64,000 nt of DNA from the IMG/VR virus record IMGVR_UViG_3300030109_002631, positions 1 through 64,000 of that record. One strand, given 5' to 3'. The position numbers and the translations under genes are program-made. This document shows positions 36,536 through 63,748 of the stretch, one piece after another (position 1 is the first letter of the stretch; every line of letters starts with the position of its first letter). The DNA comes from an uncultured virus (IMG/VR IMGVR_UViG_3300030109_002631) (taxonomy: Duplodnaviria; Heunggongvirae; Uroviricota; Caudoviricetes). The notes under the pieces are model-generated. The model did no database searches. It was not told where the DNA came from and was given only the letters and a program-made list of their open reading frames with translations.

Positions 36536-36537
36536 AA

Positions 36538-39320: not shown

Positions 39321-39331
39321 TAATCTAAGCT

Positions 39332-39712: not shown

Positions 39713-39927
39713 ATTTAAATTTCTCTAATTACTTTTAACACATGTGGGTATATAAAGATTACTGTTATCTTTCTCAGTTCATCCATGCTCTATATAGATA
39801 TATAGCTATACCAAGTGTTTACACTATATAGATATATTAAGCTACTTTCAAAATTTCACTCGATTTGTGAGTACCCCCTATCCCTCGTTTTGTCTCTTCC
39901 CCCCTCATCTTTTTAGACGGGGGGTCA

Positions 39928-39990
39928 TAAATTTATTATATATTATTTATTATTTATTTATTATTTATTTAATTATTATTTATTATTCAT
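39928..39990. repeat. A/T-only low-complexity tract (TTTA/TTAT repeats)
   Basis: ATAAATTTATTATATATTATTTATTATTTATTTATTATTTATTTAATTATTATTTATTAT. Confidence 0.8.
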
Positions 39991-40301
39991 TCATTAACTA
40001 CATGGTCAATATAACATTGATTACACAACCATCTATCTAATGTGTTATTCATGTCATCTATATCATAGACATCTTCACAGTAAGAACATGTAAAGCCTTC
40101 CTTGATAGATGCGCTACTAATAGATAGGGCATATACAGGTAATACCTGTTTCACACTGTCCCCCTTAGCAGGGGTAGCAGTGTTAGGGTTGGTCCATGTA
40201 TGGAGGTCATGGAAGGTTATACCTACACATACCTCACATCGGCCACCCTCCATGGTGGAGGGGGTCAATAGCTCGTTACAGAGTTCGCAGTTTTTGCTCA
40301 T
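39987..40301 (-). CDS. Small zinc-finger protein with four CxxC motifs
   Basis: CELC, CEVC, CSYC, CNQC; a TATA (TTTTATATG) lies ~25 nt upstream. Confidence 0.6.
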   Translation of the reverse strand: MSKNCELCNELLTPSTMEGGRCEVCVGITFHDLHTWTNPNTATPAKGDSVKQVLPVYALSISSASIKEGFTCSYCEDVYDIDDMNNTLDRWLCNQCYIDHVVNE

Positions 40302-40362
40302 AGGTGGCTATAGGGTAGGGCATATAAAATGCTCCTCCCCTCTATCTAAATCAATACAGACA

Positions 40363-40459
40363 TAGGTGAGAATGAGATTACGCGTGTAATGTCCACGTAG
40401 GTGAGTAATTATCCTAAGTGAGAAAGTATCTGTAGGTGAGTAACTAGCTAGGTGAGAAA
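40363..40459. repeat. Iteron-like direct repeats TARGTGAGWAW (5 copies, ~17-bp period)
   Basis: GTGAG cores at 40366, 40401, 40418, 40436 and 40452. Confidence 0.7.
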
Positions 40460-40664
40460 ACTCACTGTGACTATGAGGGGTAGGGTTATGACTAACCCCC
40501 CCCACCGTCCCTTTTTTGGCGGCACTGGGTTTGGCATCCCTAAGAAGTTTCCCGCCGTGAGAATGAGAAAATGTCGAGCAGGATTTTTTCCTTTATATAC
40601 CCCCTTCTCCAGACACCTAAAACCCCTCGAAAGCTTATATAGGGTGTTGCCTATGTATATATCA

Positions 40665-41003
40665 ATGGAAGCAAATCAAGCAAAACCGGATTTCTACATA
40701 TATGCCCTTGTGTCTACGAATGAAAATGTCAAAGGTGAAAATTCATTACGCGTGGACGTCGGGACTTTCGACGGACTCGGAGAGTCAATTGAATATATAG
40801 GAATCAGCCGAAACATGCCACAAAAAAGACTAAGTCAACACCATGCAAGCAAAAACAAAAATTTAGGAATGTTTGTTTTAGATTCTGAAATAAAATCAGA
40901 ATGGCATGCACTTAGAGACGAAGCAAAATATGTGAGCGACTACTTCGACCAATATGGCGAAGCACCAAAATTGCAGGGTGCTGCAAATTCAGGAAAATAC
41001 TAA
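40665..41003 (+). CDS. GIY-YIG superfamily nuclease-like protein, copy 1
   Basis: FYIYALV...YIGISRNMPQKRLSQH...ALRDEAKY; leaderless start 30 nt after TATA. Confidence 0.7.
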   Translation: MEANQAKPDFYIYALVSTNENVKGENSLRVDVGTFDGLGESIEYIGISRNMPQKRLSQHHASKNKNLGMFVLDSEIKSEWHALRDEAKYVSDYFDQYGEAPKLQGAANSGKY

Positions 41004-41016
41004 GGGGGTGAAATAA

Positions 41017-41175
41017 ATGAATACAAGCGAATTAATCCGAATGGGATTCGAAGAATCCGAAGAAGCTAATGATTTAGTAGAGGATATGTGCGAGTGCTGC
41101 AACGATGCAGCCCAAGCACACAGAGCCAGAGGATATAAAGTCTGTCTGGACTGTTTCCACGAATTGGGAGTATAA
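41017..41175 (+). CDS. Zinc-finger microprotein (52 aa)
   Basis: MNTSELIRMGFEE...CECC...CLDCFHELGV; GGGGTGA SD. Confidence 0.6.
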   Translation: MNTSELIRMGFEESEEANDLVEDMCECCNDAAQAHRARGYKVCLDCFHELGV

Positions 41176-41470
41176 ACTCCTAATTCAATCATTCGCCCTA
41201 AGCGGAGCCGAAAGGCTCCTTCTCTTATTGTTCCTTTTTGGATGGCACTGGGTTTGGCACCCTATATATGTAGCGCTCCGTGAGAATGAGAAAGTGAGAG
41301 AGCGCGCCTCCCTTTATATACCCCCCTCTAGCTCGGCGCCCCCCTTTATATACCCCTCTCTATCTCGCCCATCCTCACCCGTGGCCCGCTCCCCTTTATA
41401 TACCCCCTTCTATCTCAGCCTCTTTTTCAAAAAAAGCAAAAGCTTATATAGGCACACTCAATCTCTAATT

Positions 41471-41797
41471 ATGCCTAAATCAAACGACCAAAAGCATTTT
41501 TTCATATATGCACTTGTCCCTACCGGTAGAACAACAGATTACCATCATGTGGACATGGCATCATTTGATGATGTAGTAAGCAGTTCCGTATATTACGGAC
41601 TAACTCAAAATCCACAAAAGAGATTGAGTCAACACAGACCACGAAAAGGTTCCGACCTCGGTATGGTTGTGATAGATGAATGTGACCATCCATTATTAGC
41701 TTTAAAGCTTGAAGCTGATTATACATATGAACATTTTAAGAGAACTGGTGAAATCCCAAAACATCAAGGGATGGCAAACAGCGGGGTATACAGCTAA
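41471..41797 (+). CDS. GIY-YIG superfamily nuclease-like protein, copy 2
   Basis: FFIYALV...YYGLTQNPQKRLSQH...ALKLEADY...QGMANSG.Y, paralogous to 40665-41003. Confidence 0.7.
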   Translation: MPKSNDQKHFFIYALVPTGRTTDYHHVDMASFDDVVSSSVYYGLTQNPQKRLSQHRPRKGSDLGMVVIDECDHPLLALKLEADYTYEHFKRTGEIPKHQGMANSGVYS

Positions 41798-41846
41798 GCC
41801 CCAAAGCTTATAAAGGGGCACTCAATAGGTAAACAGAGGAAAAAAT

Positions 41847-42077
41847 ATGTCAAACAAAGAATACGAAACAATGAGCATGTGGCACACCTACAAGTCAAAC
41901 GGTGGTAGTGCAGACTTCGAGACCTTCTATGCACACAGCAGGAAGAATCAAGAATTATTGGTAAAGGTTGCACGGGGTAAAGCATTACTCCGTGGCGCTA
42001 AGCCAATCACAGTAGGACACGAAGACCTAAGATTCAACGGTGGAGATATCGAAATCGGATGGGGTGAAGATGAGTAA
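41847..42077 (+). CDS. Hypothetical early protein
   Basis: Own TATA at 41803 and GAGG SD. Confidence 0.65.
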   Translation: MSNKEYETMSMWHTYKSNGGSADFETFYAHSRKNQELLVKVARGKALLRGAKPITVGHEDLRFNGGDIEIGWGEDE

Positions 42078-42168
42078 ACATCCTTGGGCACATCTATCTT
42101 TAAAACAGATATATGCAAACACAAGAGCACTAAGAAGAATAAGAAAAGAAATGGAAGAACAATTATGA
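42070..42168 (+). CDS. Microprotein (32 aa)
   Basis: MSKHPWAHLSLKQIYANTRALRRIRKEMEEQL*; GGGGTGA SD; ATGA coupling to the next ORF. Confidence 0.5.
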   Translation: MSKHPWAHLSLKQIYANTRALRRIRKEMEEQL

Positions 42169-42317
42169 AAACAAAACGAAAAGATGGATACACAGTAATC
42201 CACAGTGGGCGGGATGCCCGCGGTGGTAAGTATTGGTTAGTCCATGACCCTGACACAGGTGGTAGTAAATACATCTGGAAGAGAGGTCATGTCTGGGCAG
42301 GATTCCAAAAGGTATAA
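42165..42317 (+). CDS. Microprotein (50 aa)
   Basis: MKTKRKDGYTVIHSGRDARGGKYWLVHD...; translationally coupled to the upstream ORF. Confidence 0.55.
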   Translation: MKTKRKDGYTVIHSGRDARGGKYWLVHDPDTGGSKYIWKRGHVWAGFQKV

Positions 42318-42473
42318 GGTAGAGGCCCCTATATAAAGGGGCTCCGCTCGTGTGGACGGCCCCAAAAAGTGCGAGCGGGATTAAGTCCTTTATATACCCC
42401 CTTATAGAAATTTGAGTCCCTCGACGAGAGAACCCACCCATAATAATATATGCTCCCCTACTATTGGTATATT

Positions 42474-42542
42474 ATGAGCAAATACAGCACATGGTTAACC
42501 AGCTATATGGTTAGCATATCATACGCAACAAGGAAACTGTAA
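42474..42542 (+). CDS. Possible leaderless 22-aa peptide preceding a structured RNA
   Basis: MSKYSTWLTSYMVSISYATRKL* at the same cassette position (TATATTATGAGCA) as the 43111 ORF. Confidence 0.35.
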   Translation: MSKYSTWLTSYMVSISYATRKL

Positions 42543-42554
42543 ACATACATTCCG

Positions 42555-42765
42555 TGAGTTAGTCAGACAGTAAGATGTGGCCCAAGGAGTAGGCGCACCC
42601 CAACGGAAAGGGGCATGTCACCAACTGAAAGAGGTTAATAGCCAAGTTGGTATTAAGTGACTAATAACAGAGGAGGTCTGACAAGTGAAGATACTATGGG
42701 CAACTGGTCCCCATACGAAGGCTCTGCATGACCCTACTCCTCAGGCTGGATTGACCACCAGCCGA
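42555..42765 (+). ncRNA. Candidate pseudoknotted ncRNA A
   Basis: AGGAGTAGG 42585/CCTACTCCT 42733 crossed by GTCAGAC 42562/GTCTGAC 42676; also CCCC/GGGG, GTCAC/GTGAC, CCAACT/AGTTGG, TATGGG/CCCATA and GGCTGG/CCAGCC; no ORF. Confidence 0.6.
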
Positions 42766-42799
42766 CAACCTTATATAGGCATGGCCTATTGTATATTTA

Positions 42800-42966
42800 A
42801 CGGGGTAGCTCCCTGTTATCGGGTATGGCCGAACAAGTCCGCCACGGACTAAGGCACAGGGTAAGCAAACCAAGAACCAACTGGTGGAGGGATGCTTAAC
42901 TGGTAACGCGTCTACTATGTAGTGGCATAACGCGTTTGGAGGTATACATTAAATCCTCCTACCCAC
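42800..42966 (+). ncRNA. Candidate ncRNA B with its own promoter
   Basis: TATA at 42771; ends pair GGGTAG 42803/CTACCC 42959; inner stems CCCTGT/ACAGGG, AGTCCG/CGGACT, AAGCA/TGCTT, AACGCGT/ACGCGTT and GGAGG/CCTCC. Confidence 0.65.
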
Positions 42967-43110
42967 CTTATATACCCCCCTTTCCACGCTTGTGGATTTC
43001 AAAAAGTGCGAGCGGGATTTTTTCCTTTATATACCCCAATATAGGATTTTAGGGTTCTCGACGATAGGGGCCACCGAAAGTGGTATAAGTTAGCTCCCCT
43101 ATACTATATT

Positions 43111-43236
43111 ATGAGCAGAAGCGAACCATTTGGCAGTTGCGAAGACTGTGGGCTTGATGAAGTCGAATTATTCGGCGGACTGTGTGAAGATTGTGACACA
43201 CAAATGTTTACTACATTCTGGACCGGTGAGGAATAA
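43111..43236 (+). CDS. Zinc-finger microprotein (41 aa)
   Basis: MSRSEPFGSCEDCGLDEVELFGGLCEDCDTQMF...; leaderless after TATA at ~43084. Confidence 0.6.
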   Translation: MSRSEPFGSCEDCGLDEVELFGGLCEDCDTQMFTTFWTGEE

Positions 43237-43464
43237 ATGTATTTAATAAAGAAGTATGCTGAAGCCCGAAGAGATGCACCGGCACTAAGCCGTGAGGCAA
43301 TTCGAGCAGAAGCAAATCTTGGCCTTCAATTAGAAAGTTTAATTTCAGCTTGGTCATCTTTAGCAAAAGATTCAAGAAATAAAAATGACTGGAACAACTT
43401 CGCTAAGTATGTATTAAATGAAATCGAAGCAATAGACAAAACAATAAAGGAGGTAAAGGCATGA
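43237..43464 (+). CDS. Hypothetical early protein
   Basis: 75 aa, GGTGAGG SD. Confidence 0.65.
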   Translation: MYLIKKYAEARRDAPALSREAIRAEANLGLQLESLISAWSSLAKDSRNKNDWNNFAKYVLNEIEAIDKTIKEVKA

Positions 43465-43595
43465 AATTCGAAATAGAAGTATCTGATGACGATTGGAAAC
43501 TAATGTTAAAGAATAGATACGGGCATGACAATGTTATAACCCGAAGCTATATGCTTGACATAGTGCACGACATCATCGACCAGATGCATGAGTAA
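43461..43595 (+). CDS. Microprotein, possibly ribbon-helix-helix-like (44 aa)
   Basis: MKFEIEVSDDDWKLMLKNRYG...; GGAGG SD; ATGA overlap. Confidence 0.5.
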   Translation: MKFEIEVSDDDWKLMLKNRYGHDNVITRSYMLDIVHDIIDQMHE

Positions 43596-43626
43596 ACTAT
43601 ATATACCCCCTCCCTATTGGTATACT

Positions 43627-43779
43627 ATGACAAGAAAACACTTCAGAGCAATAGCCAACATCTTAAAGATGCACAAAGCAAATGCAAATTTGATAATGGA
43701 CTTTGCCAACGAATGCGATAAACATAACGACTACTTTGACCTGCACAGGTTTCTAACTGCATCAGGTTATTACGATTAA
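43627..43779 (+). CDS. Small early protein (MTRKHF.AIA...N..FD..RFL.A family)
   Basis: Motif pattern I recognise from small phage early proteins; leaderless after TATA at 43598. Confidence 0.65.
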   Translation: MTRKHFRAIANILKMHKANANLIMDFANECDKHNDYFDLHRFLTASGYYD

Positions 43780-43891
43780 ATAGCTCGTTTGTTTCGGAAG
43801 AGCTGGCCCCTCTATAAAAGGGCCGCCTCGTTTTCCACCCGTGTGGCCCCTCGGACCACAACGCTTATATAGCCACACTCATTGGTATAGT

Positions 43892-44026
43892 ATGACTAAG
43901 ATACAAGACATAAGAAACGAGTTTCGTTTCAGGAGAGCACCACGCAGAACCATCACTAAGAATAAAGTTGACTCTGGCGTGTTAGACCAACTCAAAGCAA
44001 TCAAGTTGGGGTTGACCGATGAGTAA
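43892..44026 (+). CDS. Microprotein (44 aa)
   Basis: MTKIQDIRNEFRFRRAP...; leaderless after TATA at 43863. Confidence 0.6.
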   Translation: MTKIQDIRNEFRFRRAPRRTITKNKVDSGVLDQLKAIKLGLTDE

Positions 44027-44266
44027 AGACAAACAAACTCTGATTGATGAGTGGATAGAGATGCAGATAGACATGTATATAGAAGAGAAACACAACGGTG
44101 ACTAAATGAGTAAAGAAGACGCAACTGAGAGATATATACAATACCTTAAGAGAATCATGGAAGCTCACAGATGAAGAGCATCTTAGATATTCTTGATAAC
44201 ATGGAAGTAGAGTATTTCATACTCTGTGGATGTGAAGACGCTCCCTGCTGTGGTTGTAACGAGTAG
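44019..44266 (+). CDS. Three coupled microproteins (44019-44105, 44106-44174, 44171-44266); the last ends in CGCEDAPCCGCNE
   Basis: Read manually: MSKDKQTLIDEWIEMQIDMYIEEKHNGD*, MSKEDATERYIQYLKRIMEAHR* and MKSILDILDNMEVEYFILCGCEDAPCCGCNE*. Confidence 0.5.
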
Positions 44267-44332
44267 GGGGGCTGTCCCCACATGTGGACGAACTGAGGGC
44301 AAAGCTTATATAGGCACACTCTATGGTATAGT

Positions 44333-44650
44333 ATGACTAAAGGAACATGTGGTGCTATCACCAGAAAAGATTACGCAAAAGGCAGGGGTAAGAATCCCTG
44401 TGGCAAAACGGTATCAGTCGATGAGCCGTATGAAATATATAAGAACATCGCTTCAGGTTTTGAGTGGCGAGTATTGAAGAAATACCAAACACCTAAAAAG
44501 GAAGCTGAGAACTTTGAGAAAGCAAAAGCAGGTGCTGTCAATTACACCCGTTGGTTCTGCGCTGTCAAGTCACCTATGACTTATGACTCGTGGGAATACG
44601 GAGATGTATACGCACAGGACATTGTGACATACGGGGAAAGAGTTAAATAG
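44333..44650 (+). CDS. Conserved-looking early protein (FEWRVLKKYQ...RWFCAVKSP.T..SWEYGDVY)
   Basis: 105 aa, leaderless after TATA at 44301. Confidence 0.75.
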   Translation: MTKGTCGAITRKDYAKGRGKNPCGKTVSVDEPYEIYKNIASGFEWRVLKKYQTPKKEAENFEKAKAGAVNYTRWFCAVKSPMTYDSWEYGDVYAQDIVTYGERVK

Positions 44651-44669
44651 GCTTCCCCCTATGTAGTAT

Positions 44670-45031
44670 TACAGTTAAGCATATGCATAACACGTGACCA
44701 GAGTAGTAAGACAAGAATAGACCATACGCCAGTAACGACACACCACAACCAAATTAGCTGAACCATCCCTCAACGGTTATCTTAAGAGAGAGTTGGCCAT
44801 TAACTGATTCGACATGATTGCATCACTAATCCCTGTTGTAGAGTTTCGTCGTGAAGCTATGACGCAATTCTCTTCATCTCACTATGACTCCATCTCCTGA
44901 CCGTTCGCGGTTTGACTTGGAGCTGGTCACACCCTAATCGGTAACCTCTGTTCGTTAACAACACGTTACTGTGTGGCGACCGCTCCCAATGTGACTTGTT
45001 TCAAAGTATATACCACATTGGTGAAGTCGCA
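44670..45031 (+). ncRNA. Candidate large pseudoknotted ncRNA C (~360 nt) with its own promoter
   Basis: TATA at 44642; GTGACCAG 44694/CTGGTCAC 44923 crossed by CAGTAACG 44730/CGTTACTG 44964 and CAGTTAA 44672/TTAACTG 44800; 3' GCGAC/GTCGC enclosing CCAATGTG/CACATTGG; no ORF. Confidence 0.62.
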
Positions 45032-45168
45032 TCTATCCACGCTTGTGGAAAATTTTCAATTTTTTTCTGCGGAACAGAGGCTCTTTATATACTACCCTCT
45101 ACAAAAAACACTACGTCGTCGTGAGAACCCACCGCAAACTATAAGAGGCGCTCCAACTATGTAGTAAT

Positions 45169-45399
45169 ATGGTAACAGAGACTAAGAGTGGATTGCCTTG
45201 GCAGTCCCGAAATGAAACTGTCGACTACTTTGTTGAAGTCGGCACGACTCCGTATGGTAAATACGGTTTATACAAAGAAATGATTCCAGTCGGAGCTGGT
45301 AAGAGAGGACGTCATATGGAAATGGCAACTGAGATTCAGTTATCAAATCCTGAAGTCTTTAATAACTTAAAGCTTAGACAAATCGTTAGCAGGGGTTAA
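45169..45399 (+). CDS. Hypothetical early protein
   Basis: 76 aa, leaderless after TATA at ~45139. Confidence 0.65.
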   Translation: MVTETKSGLPWQSRNETVDYFVEVGTTPYGKYGLYKEMIPVGAGKRGRHMEMATEIQLSNPEVFNNLKLRQIVSRG

Positions 45400-45429
45400 G
45401 CTTAAATAGGCTTACCCCTCTGGGTATCT

Positions 45430-45768
45430 ATGACTAAGAAAGAAGTAATGGACTACCTATGGGCCCCTAAGTCAGAAGGTATTGTTTCTGGTATGCTTGA
45501 CCATCTCGGTTTTACCGGTGTCGGCAAATCAGGACGATATCCTACTGGTGTAAAGTATGATGCATTGGTTGCACTAAGTGAAGCCGTCTTATCAGATGAA
45601 AAGATGGCATCAATGGTTGCATCTCGCACTCATGATTTACAAGGAGCTCGTAAGAGTAGAAAGTCCACAGTAAAAGCCAACCCCGATTCAATTGTTAGAG
45701 CACTACAAGCTGGAACTATTTCAGAAGCAGAGCTTAAAACAGCGATGAAGAAAGCTGGTATACTGTAG
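45430..45768 (+). CDS. Hypothetical early protein
   Basis: 112 aa, leaderless after TATA at 45398. Confidence 0.7.
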   Translation: MTKKEVMDYLWAPKSEGIVSGMLDHLGFTGVGKSGRYPTGVKYDALVALSEAVLSDEKMASMVASRTHDLQGARKSRKSTVKANPDSIVRALQAGTISEAELKTAMKKAGIL

Positions 45769-45848
45769 AAGTAAACGCTGAACACAGCGGTTAACAAGCA
45801 AACACGTAGGCGGGGCGATTCCCCGCCGGTATTACCTTTATTTACAGT

Positions 45849-45863
45849 NNNNNNNNNNNNNNN
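45849..45863. other. Assembly gap (N run)
   Basis: 15 N bases. Confidence 0.99.
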
Positions 45864-46457
45864 ATTGACGCCCCTTGACTTCCGTTATCGAATGCAAAAA
45901 CATCGAGGAAGGAATGCTTTACCACCGGTGGTATATAAGTCAGGGGCTCATCTTATTTTTCCACAGGAGAGGACGGCCTCAGTTCAGGCTCTATTAGTCT
46001 CTCATTTTATTTTTTTTTCTCAGCTTAGCTCGATAGCGCTTAGTGAGAATGTTCTCAGTTGGTGCACCGCTCTGTCGGGGTGAGAAACGGCGTAGTCGGA
46101 CCGCCGTAGTGAGAAACTTCTCAGTTGAGCATCAGGTGAGAGTGCTCAATGGAGCTCATCGTCGGTATATTGAGCTGAGTAATTTGCTTTTTAGAGCTTT
46201 TTACTAAAAAATTTTCTCTTTTCGTGTGAACAGAGCAAAATACCATAAACACAGTTCACCTCTATATTAATATGGCTCTATAAAGATAAGCTCTACTATG
46301 CACTTTACACTAAGCTCTTAGTTCAATATTGCATAATAGAGCTATATCTTAATATAGTAAATATAGTATACACTACCCTCAGTATAAAAAGCTTTGGTCT
46401 CAGCTTATATACAACACCCACCGAAACGCTTAAATAGCGCTTCTACTCTGTGATAGC

Positions 46458-46670
46458 ATGACTAAAATCGACGCACTCGCTGATGTGCTTAAACAGCTAT
46501 CCGCCAGACAGCTACAACAACTTACCGTAGCTACCCCGAACCGAGACGGTTCTCAAATCAAGGCTCGTAAGATACGTGCAACTGAGACCTATTTCAGGAA
46601 CGTAAGAAACAATGGATTATATCCACATAACTTCGACTCCTTTGCTCAGTTCAGAGAGGTGTTACCTTGA
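46458..46670 (+). CDS. Hypothetical protein
   Basis: Leaderless after TATA at 46430. Confidence 0.65.
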   Translation: MTKIDALADVLKQLSARQLQQLTVATPNRDGSQIKARKIRATETYFRNVRNNGLYPHNFDSFAQFREVLP

Positions 46671-47014
46671 TTGACGCAGTAGGTAAGTTCAATAACTATA
46701 TGACTCAGCACACAGACAGGTTACCTCTGTTGAGTGTTCAGTCAGTTGACGATAAACGCTTCATTGAGTTGAGACAATTCTTAGCTCATATCTACGGAGA
46801 CGTAGAAGACAATGCATGGGATGTATCAACCCATCTGTCAAAACTCTTTTCGAGTCTCAGTTCAATGGAGCAAAATGATATTAACACAATCACTAATACT
46901 TTTAAGAAGTATGAAGTGAAAGGAGAGTCAGGTGGTATAACAGGTGAGAGGACATATGGATATGACCGAAGCCGTGTTGACCGTAAACTGATAAGAAGAA
47001 GGAGACCGAACTGA
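46667..47014 (+). CDS. Hypothetical protein
   Basis: TTG start overlapping the upstream stop, GAGGTG SD. Confidence 0.6.
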   Translation: MIDAVGKFNNYMTQHTDRLPLLSVQSVDDKRFIELRQFLAHIYGDVEDNAWDVSTHLSKLFSSLSSMEQNDINTITNTFKKYEVKGESGGITGERTYGYDRSRVDRKLIRRRRPN

Positions 47015-48199
47015 ATGAGTAGAGGATACGCAACAGATAGACCATCCCCGTCTCAGTCCGCAACATGGTATGATGAGTGGACAGAAAGAGAAGGAGGAGA
47101 TGGTAAGATATGGCACGTGAAGAGAGATTCACGTGGAACTAAGAGATGGACACGTGGAGATGCTCCAGCGTGGACACATGAACTGAGAGTGGAAGACGAT
47201 AAGCTTATAAAGGACCCTATAGATGGGGATACAGATATGGAAGACAAAACCGAACACAGAGGACTCGATGACCTATTCGATGTAGGAGCTGAGAGCCCCA
47301 TGCCAGAAGAGGAACCAACCCCCGAAGAAGTGGTTGTAGAAAAAGACACAGTTATGACTAAGCTGAAAGGTTCAGTCAATGTGCCAGAAGAATTCAAATT
47401 CGCAGACAATATGACTTTCTATACTATGTTGAGAAACATATTTAGAGGTAAGAACATTCTCATCACAGGACCATCAGGTTGTGGTAAGAGTAGTCTCGGT
47501 AAGATATTAGCTGACATTACAGGTAAAGAGTTTTATTCTTTTAACTTTGGTGATACTATGAATCCCTCAGCTAAACTATTAGGTGATACTAAGTATAACA
47601 AAGAAGATGGAACATGGTTCAAGCCGTCTCGGTTCGTTAAGGCTATACAAGCTGACTCGTTTATTATGTTAGATGAGGTAACACGTGACCGAACAGGTGA
47701 CTTAGCCAATATCTTAATGCCTGTCTTAGATGGACAGAAGTATTTAGCTCTCGATGAGAGTGAGGATGCTGACTCAGTTGAGGTTGACGCACGAGCTTTC
47801 TTCTTCGCAACTGCGAATATAGGTAGAGAGTATCTCGGTGCATCACATGATTTAGATAGAGCATGGAAAGATAGATTCACTGGTGGTATATATGAATTAG
47901 ATTATCTACCTATGAATAAAGAAAAAGAATTGATTATGATTAGAAGCCCTCAGTTAGATGAGTGGAACGCAGAGAAGATTGTAGACTTTGCAAAGAGAGT
48001 GCGTGACTTATACAAGTCCGACGAACTAACAACAGCCGTCTCAACTCGTATGTGTTTAGCGGTAGCTGAACTCGTAGTAGATGGGATGCCTTTGATAGAT
48101 GCATTGAAACATACCTGTCTACCATTCTACCCTATTCAGGGTGGTGACGATACTGAGAGAGTAAGAATAGTTCAAGTCATTCAATCTATGGGTGACTGA
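47015..48199 (+). CDS. MoxR/CbbQ-type AAA+ ATPase
   Basis: GPSGCGKS, MLDEVTR, FFATANIG.EY.G, LDRAWKDRF, VSTRM. Confidence 0.9.
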   Translation: MSRGYATDRPSPSQSATWYDEWTEREGGDGKIWHVKRDSRGTKRWTRGDAPAWTHELRVEDDKLIKDPIDGDTDMEDKTEHRGLDDLFDVGAESPMPEEEPTPEEVVVEKDTVMTKLKGSVNVPEEFKFADNMTFYTMLRNIFRGKNILITGPSGCGKSSLGKILADITGKEFYSFNFGDTMNPSAKLLGDTKYNKEDGTWFKPSRFVKAIQADSFIMLDEVTRDRTGDLANILMPVLDGQKYLALDESEDADSVEVDARAFFFATANIGREYLGASHDLDRAWKDRFTGGIYELDYLPMNKEKELIMIRSPQLDEWNAEKIVDFAKRVRDLYKSDELTTAVSTRMCLAVAELVVDGMPLIDALKHTCLPFYPIQGGDDTERVRIVQVIQSMGD

Positions 48200-48631
48200 T
48201 TGGGTTATCTTAGTTCGATAAAGACAATGGAGTATAAAATGGTAAGACGAAAAAAGAAAGTATTAAAGAGAAAGCATACATATTGGCATCAGTTAGCTAA
48301 AATAATGTTAGGCTTTGGTTTCAAACCAACTATGGTAGGACATATATTAAAAGATGTATTCCCAGAGACTGAGGTAAATGGCAGACATGTCGGTGCATAC
48401 AAACGTAGACTGATACAGGATGATGAACTGATTGTGCCAGAGAAAGCAACTATGTCACGCAACGAAGCTTCTCAACTCGCACCAGAACTGGTCTCAACAG
48501 AAGACATGTTCATATACAAGTGCACAGTTGGGTCAGCTAAGAAAAGTTTAGAATGCTTTCAGTTCAAGTTTAAAGCAGAAGATGTTAGTGCAGTGGAGGA
48601 AGTAGAAGAATGGATTACGGCGATTCAGTAG
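48200..48631 (+). CDS. Hypothetical protein (possible HTH)
   Basis: ORF between the AAA and vWA genes. Confidence 0.6.
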   Translation: MGYLSSIKTMEYKMVRRKKKVLKRKHTYWHQLAKIMLGFGFKPTMVGHILKDVFPETEVNGRHVGAYKRRLIQDDELIVPEKATMSRNEASQLAPELVSTEDMFIYKCTVGSAKKSLECFQFKFKAEDVSAVEEVEEWITAIQ

Positions 48632-50739
48632 ACGAGTGGGCTGAGGAAAGCGACGAAGACTACTGCTATGCATGTGATGACTGGGCTGAGGATGACGGTC
48701 ATGGTAACTGTAATGAGTGTGGTGTCAGTTTCAAAACTGTAGACCCATTTATCTCACCATCAGTTGCAAAGACCTACAGTTCACCAGCACCAGCCGTCTC
48801 ATCTCACGGTGATGTATGGAACAGAGGTTCCGCTTACACATGGGGCAGAGGTGCTTCATGGTGGGGTGGTTCAGGTTCAATGACCTCATCATGGGGTTGG
48901 GGTTCCTCAGTATCACACAGTGACAATACAGCTCGTATGTTAAAACATAAGAGACACTTAGATTCTCTCTGTAAAGTAGTAGACCCTAACGTAAAACATG
49001 TTCTTAACTTCTCAACTGACGGCTCGAATGTATCTAACATGAGTAAAGGAACTATCTATGTTGATGGTTCTTTGTTAGAGAGTAATGATGATAAGTTAGA
49101 TGTAGTAGCAGGTCTCTCAATTCACGAGAAGCTACACTTAGTTCATACTAAACCATTAGTTAAATGGGAAAGAGAGTATGCAGATGATAAGATGTTGAGT
49201 CACATTGAAGAGAGGCTACTACACAATATTGGTAACATTATTGAAGATGAGTATATAGAGTCTCAGTTGGCTAAGACACATGCAGGTTATGTAAACTACA
49301 TCCAGAAAGTGAAAGAACATTACTTTGAGAAACATGGACATAAGATTGAAGAATGTAAAGACCCGTTCGCAGATGTATTGAACACTCTCTTAGCGATGGT
49401 TAGATATCCTCAGTCCATAGATGCTACACGTAAAAGGAAACATGCAAAGCATATTCAGTTCTTCGGTAGAGCATTGAAGGATGGACTCAAAGACAGAGAA
49501 AGTTCTCTTCTTTGTATACGAGTATTGTATGAGTATATGCGTCAGTTAGCTGAACAACATGCAAAAGAATCTAAAGAGAAAGATGAAGAAAGTATGATGG
49601 AAAGAGCAACTGAAAAGTTAGATGAAATCATGGATTCATACAAAGAGAGTGGTGTTGAGAAAGAAATATCAGAAAAAGATTTAGATAGGATGCTCGACCA
49701 ATTACTCAAGGATGAAAAGAAAAGTGCAGAGAGGACAAGTAGGTATGGTGAACAGAGGGTTATCAGAGATGGTCTCGATTCACATCCCGTTGAACTCACT
49801 GACTATGATAAAGCTATGGGTAAGATTGACATGGACTTAGATAAAAAGATTAGAGACTTAGAAGACAGTGACTACTCAGAAGAAAAGTGGACTGGTGACA
49901 AAGCTCTCGGTTTAAAACAAGGAACTAAAGTCACATGGAAGAACCAACGAAGTCATACAGAAAGAGAGGCACATCAATATGATGAGGCAATTACATCTAT
50001 GAAAGCACCTATATCAGGTCTAAAGAGACGCATCTCTCTTTACGGTGACACTAAGGTTCACACTATAAGAAATCAACGTAGAGGTAGATTAGATAAAAAG
50101 ATGTTACATAAGATACCTCTCGGTAGAGATGACTTATTCAAAAACATTGTAGTTGACGAAGACAAACCATTAGATGTATGTCTCTTAGTTGACGAGTCAG
50201 GTAGTATGGGTTACGGTAAAATGAAGAAAGCGAGAGAGTGTGCTATAGCATTACGAGAAGCACTAAAAGATAATCAAGCTCTCAACCTATGGGTCTTTGG
50301 ACACACAGCTGACGGTTATGACTGGGATGATAAGATGGCAACCAATATGTCAGTATACTGGTCACCTACTTACCAACAGGATTTGAAAGCTATGGGTGCT
50401 ATGAGAGCACGTTCAGAGAACAGAGATGGTATGGCTATCTTAGCCTCAGCTGACAAAGTAAAGAGTGAATCACCATCAACATCAAGTAACAAACTTATGA
50501 TTGTTATCTCAGATGGTGAACCCTCAGCTGATAAGTATCGTGGCTTTGAAGCAGTAGGTCATGTATCAAAAGTAGTAAAGCACCTTGAAGGACAAGGATG
50601 GAATATAATTCAGATTGGTATTCGTGGTGCATCTACATCTATCATGGATAGAATGTTTACTAACTGGATTTATGTAGATGATGAAGCTCAGTTAGCTAAC
50701 AAAGTAGGAAGAATAGTAAGGAAGGTGATTAAAGTTTGA
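48610..50739 (+). CDS. vWA-domain (CobT-like) partner of the MoxR ATPase, with N-terminal Zn ribbon and HExxH motif
   Basis: CYAC...CNEC, HEKLH...NIIEDEYIE, MIDAS LLVDESGSM...VISDGEP. Confidence 0.88.
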   Translation: MDYGDSVDEWAEESDEDYCYACDDWAEDDGHGNCNECGVSFKTVDPFISPSVAKTYSSPAPAVSSHGDVWNRGSAYTWGRGASWWGGSGSMTSSWGWGSSVSHSDNTARMLKHKRHLDSLCKVVDPNVKHVLNFSTDGSNVSNMSKGTIYVDGSLLESNDDKLDVVAGLSIHEKLHLVHTKPLVKWEREYADDKMLSHIEERLLHNIGNIIEDEYIESQLAKTHAGYVNYIQKVKEHYFEKHGHKIEECKDPFADVLNTLLAMVRYPQSIDATRKRKHAKHIQFFGRALKDGLKDRESSLLCIRVLYEYMRQLAEQHAKESKEKDEESMMERATEKLDEIMDSYKESGVEKEISEKDLDRMLDQLLKDEKKSAERTSRYGEQRVIRDGLDSHPVELTDYDKAMGKIDMDLDKKIRDLEDSDYSEEKWTGDKALGLKQGTKVTWKNQRSHTEREAHQYDEAITSMKAPISGLKRRISLYGDTKVHTIRNQRRGRLDKKMLHKIPLGRDDLFKNIVVDEDKPLDVCLLVDESGSMGYGKMKKARECAIALREALKDNQALNLWVFGHTADGYDWDDKMATNMSVYWSPTYQQDLKAMGAMRARSENRDGMAILASADKVKSESPSTSSNKLMIVISDGEPSADKYRGFEAVGHVSKVVKHLEGQGWNIIQIGIRGASTSIMDRMFTNWIYVDDEAQLANKVGRIVRKVIKV

Positions 50740-50837
50740 ATTGGAAAGCCCCACCACATTTAGATGAAGCAGGTTGGTATCTACTACTGGTTTGCTTTAT
50801 GGTATTGTGGATGTGGATAATCATGTTCTTTCATTAG
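50736..50837 (+). CDS. Single-TM microprotein (33 aa)
   Basis: TTG start with AGGTGA SD; MNWKAPPHLDEAGWYLLLVCFMVLWMWIIMFFH*. Confidence 0.5.
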   Translation: MNWKAPPHLDEAGWYLLLVCFMVLWMWIIMFFH

Positions 50838-50847
50838 CAGGGTGACA

Positions 50848-50916
50848 GGGAATAAGTTGAGAACCTTTTACTTCTTAGTTTCGGTCGGTTTAGCTCATAT
50901 CTCTCGGCTTGTTCCC
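50848..50916 (+). ncRNA. Long hairpin RNA (15-bp stem)
   Basis: GGGAATAAGTTGAGA pairs with TCTCGGCTTGTTCCC using three G-U pairs, which favours the + strand. Confidence 0.5.
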
Positions 50917-50924
50917 CACTATAC

Positions 50925-51385
50925 GCAACGAAGACTTTGAATATTGAACTCGGAATAGATAAAGATAAGTGATAACAGGAAGGCCACGCTTAGCCTAATC
51001 ATAATGGCGGTAGTAGGACTCGAACACTTATCCTCAGTTAGGAAGCACCTCGCTTCGGAACCTTGAAAAACAGGAACTAAGCAGTGAGGTTCCCTATACT
51101 GAGTTGTATAACCCCTGTAATTGTATCGTGACTCTTTTGTCAGATGACTTTGGTTGGTTATACAAAGAAAGTCCACCTTGAGACCACGTTAAGCGAACCT
51201 CAGACAGAGCATAATGTTTTAAACTAATTGTTCTATAGCAGGTAATACCTTTTTGGGTCGGTATTGTGAAGAGAACCCAGTTGGTCGGGTTAGTGACTAA
51301 ATATCTCAATGGGAGTGACACGTTCACTGATTATCAGCACACGTATTCACACACCATAAACTGAGAGCCATTCTCTCTTCGTTGC
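50925..51385 (+). ncRNA. Candidate large ncRNA D (~460 nt) with group-I-like P3/P7 pseudoknot order
   Basis: Perfect 10-bp end pairing GCAACGAAGA/TCTTCGTTGC; GATAAGTG 50964/CACTTATC 51025 crossed by GTAGGACT 51013/AGTCCAC 51170; CTCAGT/ACTGAG and TTGTATAACC/GGTTATACAA stems. Confidence 0.68.
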
Positions 51386-51446
51386 ACCAAAAGCTTTATA
51401 TAGATATTTGAAATATATTGAATTATAATAACAAGGAATTGAAAAT

Positions 51447-51884
51447 ATGCAAACATTTCTACCAACAAAAAACTTTAGAACATCAGCCAAACTTTTAGAT
51501 TACCGTCGTCTCGGTAAGCAAAGAGTAGAAGGGCTTCAGCTCATCAACTCTCTCAGTCCAGACTACGATAAGAAAGGTTGGCTTAACCACCCAGCACGTT
51601 TAATGTGGGTTGGTTATGAGAATGCACTCAAACATTATACTAACTGTATGATAGAAGAGTGGGTGGCACGTGGTTATAACAACACGATGTCATTGTATGA
51701 AATAGAAAAGCCGATAGTATTCCCTCAGTGGTTAGGCTATCCAGAACTGCACAAGTCACATCGAATAAACCTATTACGTAAGGATTACGACTTTTATAAA
51801 CAGCACTTCGATGACGATGCACAAATGGACCTCGCAATCATAAACGAGTATGAATACTATTGGCCACCGGAGAAAGAAAAATGA
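51447..51884 (+). CDS. Pyrimidine-dimer DNA glycosylase / endonuclease V (DenV) family
   Basis: MQTFLP...LDYRRLGKQRVE..Q...GWLNHPA..MW.GY...SHR.NLLRKD; TATA at 51389. Confidence 0.85.
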   Translation: MQTFLPTKNFRTSAKLLDYRRLGKQRVEGLQLINSLSPDYDKKGWLNHPARLMWVGYENALKHYTNCMIEEWVARGYNNTMSLYEIEKPIVFPQWLGYPELHKSHRINLLRKDYDFYKQHFDDDAQMDLAIINEYEYYWPPEKEK

Positions 51885-52120
51885 TAAGAGAATTGATAGT
51901 ATGGTTAGATAAGAAGTTTGGTATGAACCGAACAAAGAAACTTATGATAAGACCACGCAAATACAGAGGAAAAAAAGAATGAGTAAATACACAGATAGAC
52001 TGCTCGTAGCAGTTCATGAAATAGCAGGACTGATATATTATCAGTGCCCTTTAGAGGAGCAGGACAGATGGTTACATCAGGTAATCGAAGATGGCCTATG
52101 GATGCCAGAGGAGTTAGCAG

Positions 52121-52330
52121 ATGCCAACAACGAAGGGTGAAGCAATACACTTCATGAAGATTATTCATGACTACTGTTCACCTATGGTAGCACGTATGAT
52201 GTTAGATGATTTAGATTTCTACATAGCAGATACGACAGGTAATGATTCTATCAAGGAATCAATTAAGATGGTGAGACGTATGGTATATGCAAAACATAAC
52301 GAAGAGATTATGTTAGACGAGGAACAATAA
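52121..52330 (+). CDS. Hypothetical protein
   Basis: ORF with GAGGAG SD, coupled to the next ORF. Confidence 0.6.
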   Translation: MPTTKGEAIHFMKIIHDYCSPMVARMMLDDLDFYIADTTGNDSIKESIKMVRRMVYAKHNEEIMLDEEQ

Positions 52331-52515
52331 TGGAAAGAGACAGAAGTAGTTTAACTACACGATTAAAACAGTTAGAAGCAGACAATGAATTGTTGAAGGA
52401 TTATATAGATAACATAGCCAGTATCATATACTATCAGATGCCTTTGAAAGAACAGGACTTATGGGTAGATGATGTGGTTGATATGGGTTGGTATAACAAA
52501 CCAAAGGATGAATAA
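52330..52515 (+). CDS. Hypothetical protein
   Basis: TAATG-coupled ORF. Confidence 0.6.
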   Translation: MERDRSSLTTRLKQLEADNELLKDYIDNIASIIYYQMPLKEQDLWVDDVVDMGWYNKPKDE

Positions 52516-52790
52516 TGGATAAGCTTAGACCAGAGAATGAACATCTATTAGAGGAAGCGAGAGGGGATGTGTATGGAGCTGAGAGTCAGGAAAATGTAGT
52601 TATGATGTTAGCTGAACTCAGACAGGAAAACCAAACACTAAAGAATTTATTAGACCACTCACGTTTCTTTGAACAGTTTATGGCACAGGAAGATGTATCG
52701 GTTGTAAAAGAACATGATGAAGAACAACCAGAAGACCAGATAAAGGTTAACTACCACGTGTCAGAAGAGAACCCAGAGTTTGAAGAGTAA
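52515..52790 (+). CDS. Hypothetical acidic protein
   Basis: TAATG-coupled ORF. Confidence 0.6.
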   Translation: MDKLRPENEHLLEEARGDVYGAESQENVVMMLAELRQENQTLKNLLDHSRFFEQFMAQEDVSVVKEHDEEQPEDQIKVNYHVSEENPEFEE

Positions 52791-53020
52791 TGCTAACAGA
52801 TAGATACTGTAGGTTTTGTGGAAAGAGGATATCCTTAGCTGAATGGGATTTATACGGAGGACAATGTGGAACATGCTCAGTAGGTATATTAGACATCTTA
52901 GACTTTTTCTAAGCTCTATTGAGAAAGCTTTATATATCTCCCTATAATATATTAATATAGCACTGCTAAATAATGCGTAATGCATAACATAGTGTTAACA
53001 ATATTTAGCGAGGTAATGCT

Positions 53021-53524
53021 ATGGGAAGAAAAGATACAGGAAAGAACTTTGAAAATGAAATCAGACGTTCACTCAAATCCAGCAGACACATCTGGTGGTT
53101 CAGGATACAGGATACTAATGACATTAATAGATTCGTTAAAATTGCTGTTGCAGAGAAGCAACCAGCCGACTTCTTCACTGTATACAGAAGTAGACCAATT
53201 ATGGTGGAGGCTAAAACTTCTCGGAATCTTAGTTCTTTTCCTTTATATTATGGTAATACCCGTTCTATTGCTCCTCATCAGGTAAAGGAAGGAGAAAGAT
53301 TAGTGAGAGCAGGTGGACTGAGTTTTATATTAATACGAAGAGAGGAGTTTAGAAACAAAAAGGTGTATGCAATTACACCATCACAAGCGAAATACTTATA
53401 TAGTAAGGCATACGATAAGAAATCAGTGAAGTGGCAGTGGTTTGATAAACATGCTATTGAAGTTGAAAGACTCAAGGCACCACTACGATGGAACTTACAC
53501 AAATTATACGAAGAGGTAATATGA
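53021..53524 (+). CDS. Holliday junction resolvase (Hjc/RecU-like PD-(D/E)XK)
   Basis: GKNFENEI, PADF, VEAKT, IAPHQ, GGLSFILI. Confidence 0.8.
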   Translation: MGRKDTGKNFENEIRRSLKSSRHIWWFRIQDTNDINRFVKIAVAEKQPADFFTVYRSRPIMVEAKTSRNLSSFPLYYGNTRSIAPHQVKEGERLVRAGGLSFILIRREEFRNKKVYAITPSQAKYLYSKAYDKKSVKWQWFDKHAIEVERLKAPLRWNLHKLYEEVI

Positions 53525-53800
53525 AAAAGAGAGCAACAAAGATACCATATGAAGGATATACTCTACCCCCCTCAGCAGAGAAGGGTGGACAGTTTGTAGA
53601 CTTCAACAGAGTAATAGAAAGAAAACCAATAAAGAAGGTTAGGATTAAGAAATGACAATAACAGACTGGCTACTGTTCATAGCAGTAATAGATGGACCCT
53701 TAATAGGATTTATCTATCTCATTTGGCAGAAGCTGAAAAGTGAAATGAAAAGTAAAAAGCTATTGCAAAGAATGGCTGAAGAAAGAGGAATGACAAAAGA

Positions 53801-56603: not shown

Positions 56604-56652
56604 AAAGCTTTATATATCTATATAGAGTATAAGCTACAAAGGATGTGAAATT

Positions 56653-56865: not shown

Positions 56866-56867
56866 AC

Positions 56868-58319: not shown

Positions 58320-59778
58320 ACTGCATGACCTATTAAGGTATTTCCATAATGCCCGTAAGAGTGATGGCACTCTGGCTCCTATATTAGGAGAAGACTCTGT
58401 AGCTCTCACTTCAGCATTAGCTTATTTGTTAGAAGATAATAACTTTTGTATCAAAGCTTATTCAGGAACAGGTAAGACAGTTATCATGGATGCTGTCAAA
58501 ATGTTACTTCCTGAAGAGTGGTATTATACAATGGAACATTTATCTGAGACTGCTATATGGTATGACAAAACAGATATAAATATGTCTCGTTTTGTATTTA
58601 TACCTGAAGCACAAAAGCTACCTGAAGGGGTTATGGAGATAATTAAAACATGGGCTGATGATAGAACAGCTAATCGTAAGGTGACCGATGTCACTACTAA
58701 GACAGCACGAGCGCAGAACTTATATAAGAAATTTGTTTTCATGTGTGTAGCAGTAGAAAACGATAAAGGTTCAGCTTACTTTGATGCTGAGTTAGAACGT
58801 CGATGTATGATTATGCATACTAATCCCACAGTAGAACAAACTGAGAGAGTATTGAGATACAAGCTGATGCATTCAGCTCTTCCTAAAACATCTATTACCA
58901 ATATGGATGAGGATGAAATAAACAAACTGAAAGAACACATAAAAGATTGTATATCAGAAAAGGATGATGATAGGGGAACTGTTATTAAGAATCCCTGTGC
59001 TCCCTTTTTGATTGATGCTATTCCAAGTGCGTTCCCTGTTTCACGTTCTAAAGTTCAATATCTATTGAGACTTGTGAATGCAGTTGCACGTTTCTATCCA
59101 CAGGAATTAACCAGAGTAGATAAAGATGGAGTTCACTATGGCTTAGTATCACCTAAGCATAACTGGTTAGCTCTTAGAATATATCTTCAGTCATTCGTAG
59201 AAGAGTGTCTACACATGCCAAGTCATGGAACAGATATATTAAAACTATTCCCTGAATCCAGACTGGATAGATTTGGTTTTGCAGATAGTGATACAGTCAA
59301 AATGTCAGAAGCAGAAATCAAGAAAGCTGCGAAGGCTGCTGGTTTACCCTTCACTAAACTGAGACCCGTTATATCAGGACTACTGATGACAGGGTTCTTA
59401 GAAAGTGAAGAAGATGGAAAAAGAATCTTATATTATAAGAGTCCTCTTTTGACATCACCTCAGTCTAAAATAAAATGGAGTGATTTGATTGACAACACGA
59501 AAGAGTTTATACGAGAGAACTGGCCTGAAGTGGCTGACGAATACATTAGGAGCAGTTGTAGCCGTATCCAAATTGTTGACCCGATTAACGGGAACAACAT
59601 TGAACTGGGTGCGGGAGCAGAGAGAGCAACGGAAGTAGATGACGCTGAATATCCTTCAGTGTTTAAGTCTGCTAAAGATGCAAAGATTAAGGACTATGAG
59701 TCCTTTCTATTAAAAGCAGAAGGAGATTACAATGAAGAAGAAGACGAAGCCGTCAGAGTATTTTACGAAGAAGGTTAA
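58303..59778 (+). CDS. P-loop AAA+-like ATPase (candidate replicative helicase) with wHTH
   Basis: Walker A AYSGTGKT, degenerate Walker B FVFIPE, DAELERR arginine-finger-like motif. Confidence 0.6.
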   Translation: MKKKFELHDLLRYFHNARKSDGTLAPILGEDSVALTSALAYLLEDNNFCIKAYSGTGKTVIMDAVKMLLPEEWYYTMEHLSETAIWYDKTDINMSRFVFIPEAQKLPEGVMEIIKTWADDRTANRKVTDVTTKTARAQNLYKKFVFMCVAVENDKGSAYFDAELERRCMIMHTNPTVEQTERVLRYKLMHSALPKTSITNMDEDEINKLKEHIKDCISEKDDDRGTVIKNPCAPFLIDAIPSAFPVSRSKVQYLLRLVNAVARFYPQELTRVDKDGVHYGLVSPKHNWLALRIYLQSFVEECLHMPSHGTDILKLFPESRLDRFGFADSDTVKMSEAEIKKAAKAAGLPFTKLRPVISGLLMTGFLESEEDGKRILYYKSPLLTSPQSKIKWSDLIDNTKEFIRENWPEVADEYIRSSCSRIQIVDPINGNNIELGAGAERATEVDDAEYPSVFKSAKDAKIKDYESFLLKAEGDYNEEEDEAVRVFYEEG

Positions 59779-60052
59779 ACTACCTACCAAAGACGAACAA
59801 TTCGCAGTTGTTCGAGAGATGTCTGGAGGTTCACGTCTTCTCGCTATGTGTGAAGATAACCAAATGAGAATGGTTAGAATCGGTGGTAAGTTTAAGAAAA
59901 GAATGTGGGTCCGAGTAGATGATTTAATATTAATCAAACCTTGGACCGTTCAGTCTGATTCAAGAGCAGACTTAGTTTATCGCTATCTCCCAAATGAGAG
60001 GAATTGGATTCTCAGAAGAGACATAATACCAGAGGAGTTGAATATATGGTAA
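59732..60052 (+). CDS. eif1a: Archaeal translation initiation factor aIF-1A
   Basis: QFAVVREMSGGSRLLAMCED...RIGGKFKKRMWVRVDDLILIKPW...RADLVYRY. Confidence 0.92.
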   Translation: MKKKTKPSEYFTKKVKLPTKDEQFAVVREMSGGSRLLAMCEDNQMRMVRIGGKFKKRMWVRVDDLILIKPWTVQSDSRADLVYRYLPNERNWILRRDIIPEELNIW

Positions 60053-63553: not shown

Positions 63554-63748
63554 ATGGACGAAAATGATAGTAAACAATTAGCATCTTTTTTGCAAGATGC
63601 AGAAGTCAAGATTGTGTGGCGTGAAGAGGACAAGACGAAAGTCGGTAGAGGAAAGATAACGAATGACGATGAAAATTTTGTATATCTTACTGGTGAAAAA
63701 GGGACCGTTATCGTAAACAAGCGAGACATAATAGCAATAAAACAATAA
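63554..63748 (+). CDS. Sm/Hfq-like small RNA-binding-fold protein
   Basis: EVKIVWRE...GRGKITNDDENFVYL...TVIVNKRDIIAI resembles Sm1/Sm2 motifs; own TATA at 63474. Confidence 0.55.
   Translation: MDENDSKQLASFLQDAEVKIVWREEDKTKVGRGKITNDDENFVYLTGEKGTVIVNKRDIIAIKQ

Follow-up and report, generated by a model that had tools for sequence, protein, structure and literature searches.

What occupies the few stretches without open reading frames (ORFs) in an otherwise gene-dense viral genome? The question arises in an uncultured tailed virus (IMG/VR IMGVR_UViG_3300030109_002631), a 66,265-base record of which bases 1-64000 were analysed here (the window). An initial annotation had read four such blocks, between 42555 and 51385, as one undescribed set of promoter-associated RNAs for host takeover or anti-defence. 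Judged by sequence comparison, all four blocks are conserved structured RNAs, but they are not one undescribed system: block 2 is manA (RF01745), while blocks 1, 3 and 4 have no Rfam family. Block 4, together with a hairpin directly upstream of it (hairpin U), is the part that could prove categorically new. A role in host takeover or anti-defence, as the annotation proposed, would rest on the early-gene position of the RNAs and the fast turnover of their modules.

Conserved RNA folds in the ORF-free blocks

42549..42765, + strand: block 1 RNA, about ten helices (comparative pairing; no Rfam match)
42798..42969, + strand: block 2, a stand-alone manA RNA (RF01745) with no downstream gene in its cassette (Rfam match)
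44671..44934, + strand: block 3 core RNA, with a leader hairpin and nested long-range helices (comparative pairing)
44976..45030, + strand: conserved hairpin of its own, ending block 3, whose internal loop is invariant
50925..51389, + strand: block 4 RNA, with a closing stem (50925-34 with 51376-85) and a conserved inner frame

Relatives were gathered by their AAA protein (17, 26 and the best 80 of 405 loci) and by DNA-pattern searches, and unit profiles were built over 173 loci plus the window. These contain 29 distinct near-full-length copies of block 1, 47 of block 2, 33 of the block 3 core and 30 of the block 3 tail. Indels that are not multiples of three prevail among the homologues (176/238 in block 1, 155/184 in manA and 236/257 in block 3) and break the reading frames, so that no conserved small ORF, the finding that would have spoken for coding sequence, runs across the blocks. 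They are non-coding and structured, as claimed, and compensatory pairing among the homologues of blocks 1, 2 and 3 is strong.

The hand-built structure of block 1 has 94.9% of its cells paired, and 23 of its 39 pairs show a change on both sides (25 copies, being the 27 non-redundant ones minus two partial). None of 500 shuffles reaches these measures, and slid controls are 35-49% paired. In a tree-based test a hairpin pair and a pseudoknot pair come out on top, each with four pair types in 24 of the 25 copies; some non-pairing columns also scored, because of shared ancestry. For block 3 the corresponding values are 84.6% and 28 of 50 pairs (31 copies), with 0/500 shuffles and slid controls of 33-49% over blocks 1 and 3; four of its helices are only 58-63% paired, partly because of alignment slips. 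In manA the top 15 pairs score at E about 0 and 11 of them are base pairs (45 non-redundant homologues); a loop-bulge pair is kept in 45/45 copies with three pair types.

The crossing helices that had been predicted hold in blocks 1 and 3. At the 5' end of block 1, 42550-55 pairs with 42603-08, and one position shows four Watson-Crick types; the block had been started at 42555, which cuts off this pseudoknot strand, and its real start is 42549. The core of block 3 has a closing stem (44694-701 with 44923-30), and a 3-bp crossing helix (44764-66 with 44814-16) is paired in 31/31 copies, with double-sided change in 19 cells. The separate hairpin that ends block 3 has stem pairs in 29/29 non-redundant homologues (E 0.1; folding z -4.4). 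Within block 1, the K-loop-like hairpin 42676-92 has a covarying base stem. A K-turn or K-loop, along with guide pockets complementary to rRNA or tRNA, would be expected of an archaeal C/D or H/ACA guide RNA; block 1 has no Rfam match. The 3' half of the block is the variant common to the related locus L059. An 8-bp match between 42587-94 and 42735-42 was rejected: it is absent in relatives and probably due to chance.

Could these be features of the DNA, such as protein-binding palindromes or an origin or packaging region, or else neutral recombination debris? Promoter-like repeats abound in the region, a palindrome can equally be a site in DNA, and a comparison of folding with shuffles, proposed as a check, is clear in block 2 (z -3.10) and weak in blocks 1, 3 and 4 of the window (z -0.94, -1.84 and -1.95). 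G-U pairs, pseudoknot covariation, tetraloops, a strict bulge-helix-bulge (BHB) motif and an Rfam family are, however, signatures of single-stranded RNA; the covariation largely refutes a DNA-level origin, which we consider very improbable.

Comparison shows each unit to be a conserved fold, and units to be swapped between promoter cassettes. The reading that we prefer, at a little short of an even chance, is that these stand-alone RNAs are trans-acting, serving as multivalent scaffolds or decoys in the early and middle phases of infection.

Block 2 matches RF01745 over model positions 1-192 of 192 (67.1 bits, gathering score 55.2, E 6.5e-15). When the window, two of its sub-regions and two sets of related loci (14 and 8) were scanned with Rfam, manA was the only match; it is above cut-off in 5 of the 8 relatives. 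The cmscan check thus identified one block and left the other three without a match. The covariance models of ROOL, GOLLD and OLE gave no match for blocks 1, 3 and 4 at E up to 1-10, and blastn of blocks 1+2 and of U+4 against 50,697 phage records returned nothing meaningful. As had been stated, none matches tRNA: ARAGORN finds 0 tRNA genes in the window, with no Rfam tRNA or tmRNA match and no cloverleaf. Three units had been overlooked, namely hairpin U, unit X (described below) and the separate hairpin ending block 3.

Block 4 and hairpin U

46429..50739, + strand: operon with promoter, small ORFs, MoxR-type AAA ATPase and vWA/CobT protein (sequence)
50840..50924, + strand: hairpin U, with a strict hBHBh' base (comparison of 38 versions)
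50982-51019, + strand: block 4 module A, with module B nested at 50994-51007
51041-95, + strand: block 4 module C, with module D nested at 51057-77
51112-53, 51173-95 and 51244-79, + strand: block 4 modules E, F and G (read from sequence)

Block 4 lacks its own promoter and lies at the end of the MoxR/vWA operon, whose transcript probably runs on into hairpin U and block 4. Comparison of 36 complete copies (31 non-redundant, with the near-identical contig L029 standing for the window) shows a fixed handle with an exchangeable payload of apparently self-contained modules. Relatives keep the closing stem and the short inner frame 3' of the vWA gene, and differ in the interior, a payload of 146-748 nt in the 31 non-redundant copies. 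Nineteen motifs recur in 2-18 of these copies, against 0-0.6 expected in shuffles. The 24 copies that carry at least one motif give 23 different module strings; motif pairs are seen in both orders in 20 cases out of 55, and members of the two deep clades of the AAA-protein tree have the same modules.

The helices that hold the modules vary in sequence yet remain paired, and for 8 of 12 modules the own flanks pair better than swapped ones. The modules are also nested in one another: B in A and D in C in the window, D in P in locus L014, and K in E in locus L115. Read by eye, module G folds as a small pseudoknot in which changes match across the pairs, and together with F it makes up a single domain, found in two circularly permuted versions. 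Copies of at most 400 nt (16/31) have a mean folding z of -3.6 against a crude shuffle. The pairs of the terminal stem are kept in 23/23 clade-1 frames, the inner frame helix was read by eye, and a second frame type of like layout is found in 10 of the 36 copies. Two candidate features were discarded: a pseudoknot in the frame, where a 9-bp terminal stem fits better, and a universal CCA end, as the tails vary.

Several points weigh against so modular a picture. Modules C, J, K and S have no own-flank advantage, 7 of the 31 homologues carry none of the motifs, and the motifs were picked by eye from the same sequences; the frame pairs fall short of significance (E about 0.5). In IMG/VR, the module A pattern has 38 matches, 7 in block 4 context and the rest mostly without flanking helices, and the module H pattern has 4, of which 3 lie on contigs already in this virus group. 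The module A pattern with a plausible inner hairpin also occurs in other viral contigs outside block 4 context (L187, L201, L189 and L192), as a candidate module or a chance match.

Hairpin U is the longest-stemmed of 37 BHB candidates on both strands of 39001-57000, with an inner stem of 15 bp, the runner-up having 11; each of four shuffles yielded 14-18 candidates, of which 1-2 had at least 10 bp. Its base has the 4-bp central helix (50841-44 with 50917-20) and the two 3-nt bulges on opposite strands (50845-47 and 50921-23) of the hBHBh' form, closed by the outer pair 50840-50924. Among 38 distinct versions the central helix is complementary in five spellings and the outer pair is formed in 38/38 (27 G-C, 9 A-U, 1 U-G, 1 C-G), neither having been forced by the search; the stem covaries. 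Two observations stand on the other side: the outer helix is just one pair in 34 of the 38 versions, and the search itself had fixed the letters of the bulges. Blocks 1-3 have no BHB at their ends, and only hairpin U stood out. A weaker candidate in module C was rejected, its outer pair being missing in locus L002.

Hairpin U is likely a splicing-endonuclease site, whose use would circularise a 76-nt RNA (predicted excised piece 50847-50922) and free block 4. The host EndA would cut the BHB, releasing block 4 from the MoxR/vWA mRNA with a new 5' end, and the hairpin would be ligated into a circle of about 76 nt, as archaeal introns are. Haloferax EndA strictly requires the BHB motif, and its introns are circularised, including one in an mRNA untranslated region (UTR) (PMC7714728; also PMC12558985). 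The known substrates (tRNA introns, pre-rRNA stems and the HVO_1309 5' UTR; PMC7714728) share with hairpin U the 4-bp helix, the two 3-nt bulges and the flanking pairs, and the 75-nt tRNA-Met intron is close in size to its 76-nt piece. Hairpin U differs in being virus-encoded and outside tRNA and rRNA, between an mRNA and a non-coding RNA, with a cleavage that is predicted. Among the papers listed, judged by title and opening of the abstract and with subscription journals outside coverage, none points to a viral BHB-derived RNA. The RNA-library contigs described below show no joint at hairpin U, which carries no weight either way.

The loop of hairpin U contains a hexamer (50893-98), kept in most versions, that is complementary to a start codon plus a Ser codon. 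Its best viral matches extend over 10-12 nt to early gene starts in several relatives, with none convincing in the window; over 24 loci of at least 12 kb, the window genome included, no consistent viral target emerges, which counts against the preferred trans reading. Locus L115 has changes in both its U loop and a leaderless mRNA start, and the two still match over 11 nt.

Such loops raise the alternative that the RNAs mimic tRNA, as decoys for host anticodon nucleases or to tune translation initiation. The closing stems have acceptor-like ends, 7-nt hairpins are T-loop-like, and the loops of module B and hairpin U expose the methionine anticodon triplet, in what we take to be likenesses to anticodon and T loops. 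A genome without tRNA that yet encodes aIF-1A would suit this idea, as would the prevalence of module B, the commonest module (18/31), the retention of the U-loop hexamer and the joint change in L115. Variable 3' tails with the CCA end often missing, the lack of a cloverleaf, and a window U loop that matches its own leaderless starts no further than about 6-8 nt make tRNA mimicry quite unlikely.

For block 4 itself we tentatively propose a combinatorial toolbox: a constant handle to which recombination adds independently folding aptamer or decoy modules that it also nests, permutes and reorders, released by EndA along with a start-codon-reading circular RNA. As a whole this is possible rather than probable. 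In the preferred trans reading, each module would bind one host factor (an RNA-binding protein, a nuclease or a small ligand), and recombination would reshuffle the modules into a different set of sponges for each virus, as in an arms race. Phage decoy RNAs (anti-CRISPR repeat mimics, antitoxin mimics, phage tRNAs) are also small early-region RNAs that could titrate host defence; block 4 is unlike them a multi-module scaffold, not one repeated unit, and no mimicked host RNA was identified. If the proposal is true, the toolbox is an RNA counterpart of shuffled anti-defence protein arrays, and the virus borrows EndA to make its own RNAs. Hairpin U gives a sharp prediction, a specific circular junction that can be checked in existing marine RNA reads.

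Virus-borne ornate RNAs without assigned function are a known kind (10.1101/2024.12.08.627333). ROOL, GOLLD and OLE, as described there, are phage-borne, abundant-looking and pseudoknotted, with variable stems and conserved loops, and a variable linker of GOLLD can hold tRNAs. Their architecture is fixed and their hosts bacterial, whereas block 4 reorders and nests its modules and has no Rfam match. ROOL, GOLLD and manA have known structures without a known function. This virus group offers a natural experiment: a single early region holds several RNAs of this sort, which trade places among cassettes, and in one of them the modules vary independently; the modules are short enough to be synthesised and tested singly, so that the question of function becomes directly testable.

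manA, block 3 and the exchange of small units

42474..42542, + strand: 22-codon leaderless ORF before block 1, starting 30 nt after a TATA element
42770..42797, + strand: early TATA promoter cassette before manA (repeat family D18)
44642..44670, + strand: early TATA promoter before block 3 (sequence)
45776..45830, + strand: two small hairpins before an RNA slot, which holds manA in most relatives (comparison)
45849..45863, no strand: assembly gap, where the near-identical contig L029 has a hairpin unit with a 9-bp stem
45870..45947, + strand: unit X, a conserved RNA of about 80-95 nt with a palindromic hairpin at 45920-33

Leaderless ORFs in the window begin 28-31 nt 3' of TATA-type promoters. 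Blocks 2 and 3 start 28-29 nt 3' of such an element, which bears out the claim that two RNAs follow an early promoter and fill the gene slot of its cassette. As a description of the whole set, promoter association fails for blocks 1 and 4, which follow ORFs. Short peptides similar to that of the ORF before block 1 occur in loci L001 and L013 (by eye). Among homologues a promoter lies directly 5' of block 3 in 12/30 contexts, of manA in 5/47 and of block 1 in 0/24. In most of the other manA contexts the RNA is preceded by a small G+C-rich hairpin and a short shared junction, and occupies the slot that in the window holds the N gap.

This short junction heads most RNA units (manA, block 3, block 1 and unit X) in relatives, often 3' of a G+C-rich hairpin; about eight such hairpins replace one another, and the loops of some are T-loop-like. 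The junction resembles the TATA element; it is probably a cut site, or else may be a recombination scar. A precedent for such a cut by tRNase Z reportedly exists in Haloferax 5S rRNA, for which a literature search turned up no paper. The unit that fills the gap in L029 (340-412) has the same leader as block 3; since this slot holds another hairpin unit in a near-identical contig, the units are exchangeable.

The original description of manA put it forward as a possible cis-regulatory element (PMC2864571). A cis role could be extended to the whole set: blocks 1 and 4 would be 3'-UTR stabilisers or nuclease road-blocks on viral mRNA, hairpin U would be a processing site that sets when the MoxR/vWA mRNA decays, and leaders or riboswitches would be the role of manA and block 3. 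Block 1 does follow an ORF or hairpin, with its knot at the very 5' end, block 4 ends an operon, and a BHB intron is known from an mRNA UTR (PMC7714728). Against this, manA and block 3 each take up an entire promoter cassette and are followed by no gene in it, manA varies in position and strand among relatives, and a stabiliser needs no shuffled payload of 146-748 nt. Nor does manA lie in the 5' UTR of a gene: a non-coding repeat follows it in the window, and unit X or U-tracts in relatives. Taken jointly, these cis functions seem to us unlikely. In L014, L110, L044, L015 and L112 manA lies opposite in strand to the AAA gene.

Under the trans reading, blocks 2 and 3 would be primary transcripts of early promoters. 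Block 2 belongs to the manA family by its full-length match and its many covarying pairs; the family, found in cyanophages, Photobacterium and marine metagenomes, was described as a candidate element of 5' UTRs, whereas here it is a stand-alone unit in a probable archaeal virus. This would place manA in archaeal viruses as a stand-alone RNA and would argue against the riboswitch reading. Related manA RNAs form 8-, 10- and 60-mers via kissing loops, as a cryo-EM study reports (bioRxiv 10.64898/2026.07.01.735769). Such pentamer-based cages were seen for other variants; the manA of the window would form them in the way that its relatives do in vitro.

Block 3 comprises two or three units. Its core has a palindrome (8 nt, 44780-87 in the window) of at least 8 nt at one fixed place, found by script in 29 of 31 copies and by eye in the remaining two, with seven different central four-mers overall. 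Unit X (28 homologues, two pairs at E 0.03) has a palindrome of at least 8 nt in 28/28, in ten spellings. Palindromes that are respelled in both RNAs suggest dimers, which block 3 and unit X may form. Retroviral dimerisation initiation site (DIS) kissing-loop signals have the same design, a self-complementary stretch of 8-14 nt at a fixed place, respelled; the RNAs here differ in being small, non-genomic products of a DNA virus, with putative dimers. For block 3 the promoter, the G-U pairs and tetraloops of stable type favour the plus strand. On the opposite side, it is the minus strand that has the more stable fold in 31/31 homologues.

These features could also belong to protein-free particles, either cages or filaments, in which viral components would be compartmentalised or protected, with the modules of block 4 as no more than interchangeable assembly contacts. 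Cages made of RNA only are formed by manA, ROOL and GOLLD, palindromes occur in block 3 and unit X, and contacts of this type are marked by stems that vary and A-rich loops that are conserved (10.1101/2024.12.08.627333). A symmetric cage needs a fixed geometry, which is hard to square with 23 module orders and a five-fold length range in block 4; particles are, in our judgement, an improbable explanation.

Transcription, candidate partners and the virus

59732..60052, + strand: archaeal-type aIF-1A (Pfam E 3e-15)
63554..63748, + strand: highly conserved 64-aa protein, weakly Hfq/Sm-like (profile search)

Contigs from RNA libraries match the window identically at 44539-44879 and 51099-51309 (X18) and at 51056-51242 (X20, same study); one X18 contig runs on into the block 4 of a relative. 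This coverage is weak support for expression of the RNAs. The contigs cover ORFs too, come mostly from one study and are uninformative on ends, strand and level, and this strain's manA and block 1 are uncovered among the matches listed; these are points against the trans reading. Small shares in RNA runs X19 and X21 add no evidence. The trans reading also has to reckon with the fact that no ligand, target or partner was identified for the RNAs.

Two proteins had been pointed out alongside the RNAs. The aIF-1A is confirmed by Pfam, and its cellular relatives (7 found) are all archaeal. The Sm/Hfq likeness of the 63554-63748 protein is weaker than stated. The protein has 562 close homologues and no Pfam match; Atlas links it to archaeal DUF6897 (0.93). 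The wider family profile has Hfq as its best match in PDB (E 0.037), with further Hfq chains at E 0.46 and 1.7 (9 matches), and single distant members match Hfq, DUF6897, DUF2642 or RimP SH3 models below cut-off. A stand-alone protein encoded at 54872-55177, highly conserved in the virus group, is weakly WYL-like (40/57 members, below cut-off); its structure models, with predicted local distance difference test (pLDDT) values of 41 and 50, are too poor to search.

The window encodes terminase, portal, capsid and tape-measure proteins, PolB, aIF-1A, a MoxR-type AAA ATPase and a CobT-type vWA protein. The gene content (CobT-type vWA, PolB) is like that of Velanvirus, magrovirus group E (Krittikaviridae; PMC11706807). 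This is a likeness of gene content, with no Magrovirales reference in the phage collection. The virus probably infects archaea, and the analysis makes Poseidoniales the likely host. A literature search found no paper on structured RNAs of Poseidoniales viruses, with subscription journals outside its coverage. The virus is common in seawater, at least half of the sampled words being present in 17 runs.

Region 40593-45103 contains at least seven TATA-plus-C-run repeats that head no ORF, three of them clustered at 41314-41414, as well as longer repeats with a conserved inverted element; these are possible TBP decoys or an origin. Two paralogous early ORFs (40665-41003 and 41471-41797) have weak GIY-YIG matches. 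Between the early region and the MoxR operon, 46000-46400 is non-coding, has many short inverted repeats and is partly kept in relatives. A modification-enzyme cluster (35118-39320; DUF6445, TPR, and radical SAM fused to FkbM methyltransferase) adjoins the structural module, and at 53801-54403 this probable archaeal virus carries a squalene/phytoene synthase-family gene (Pfam E 4e-26).

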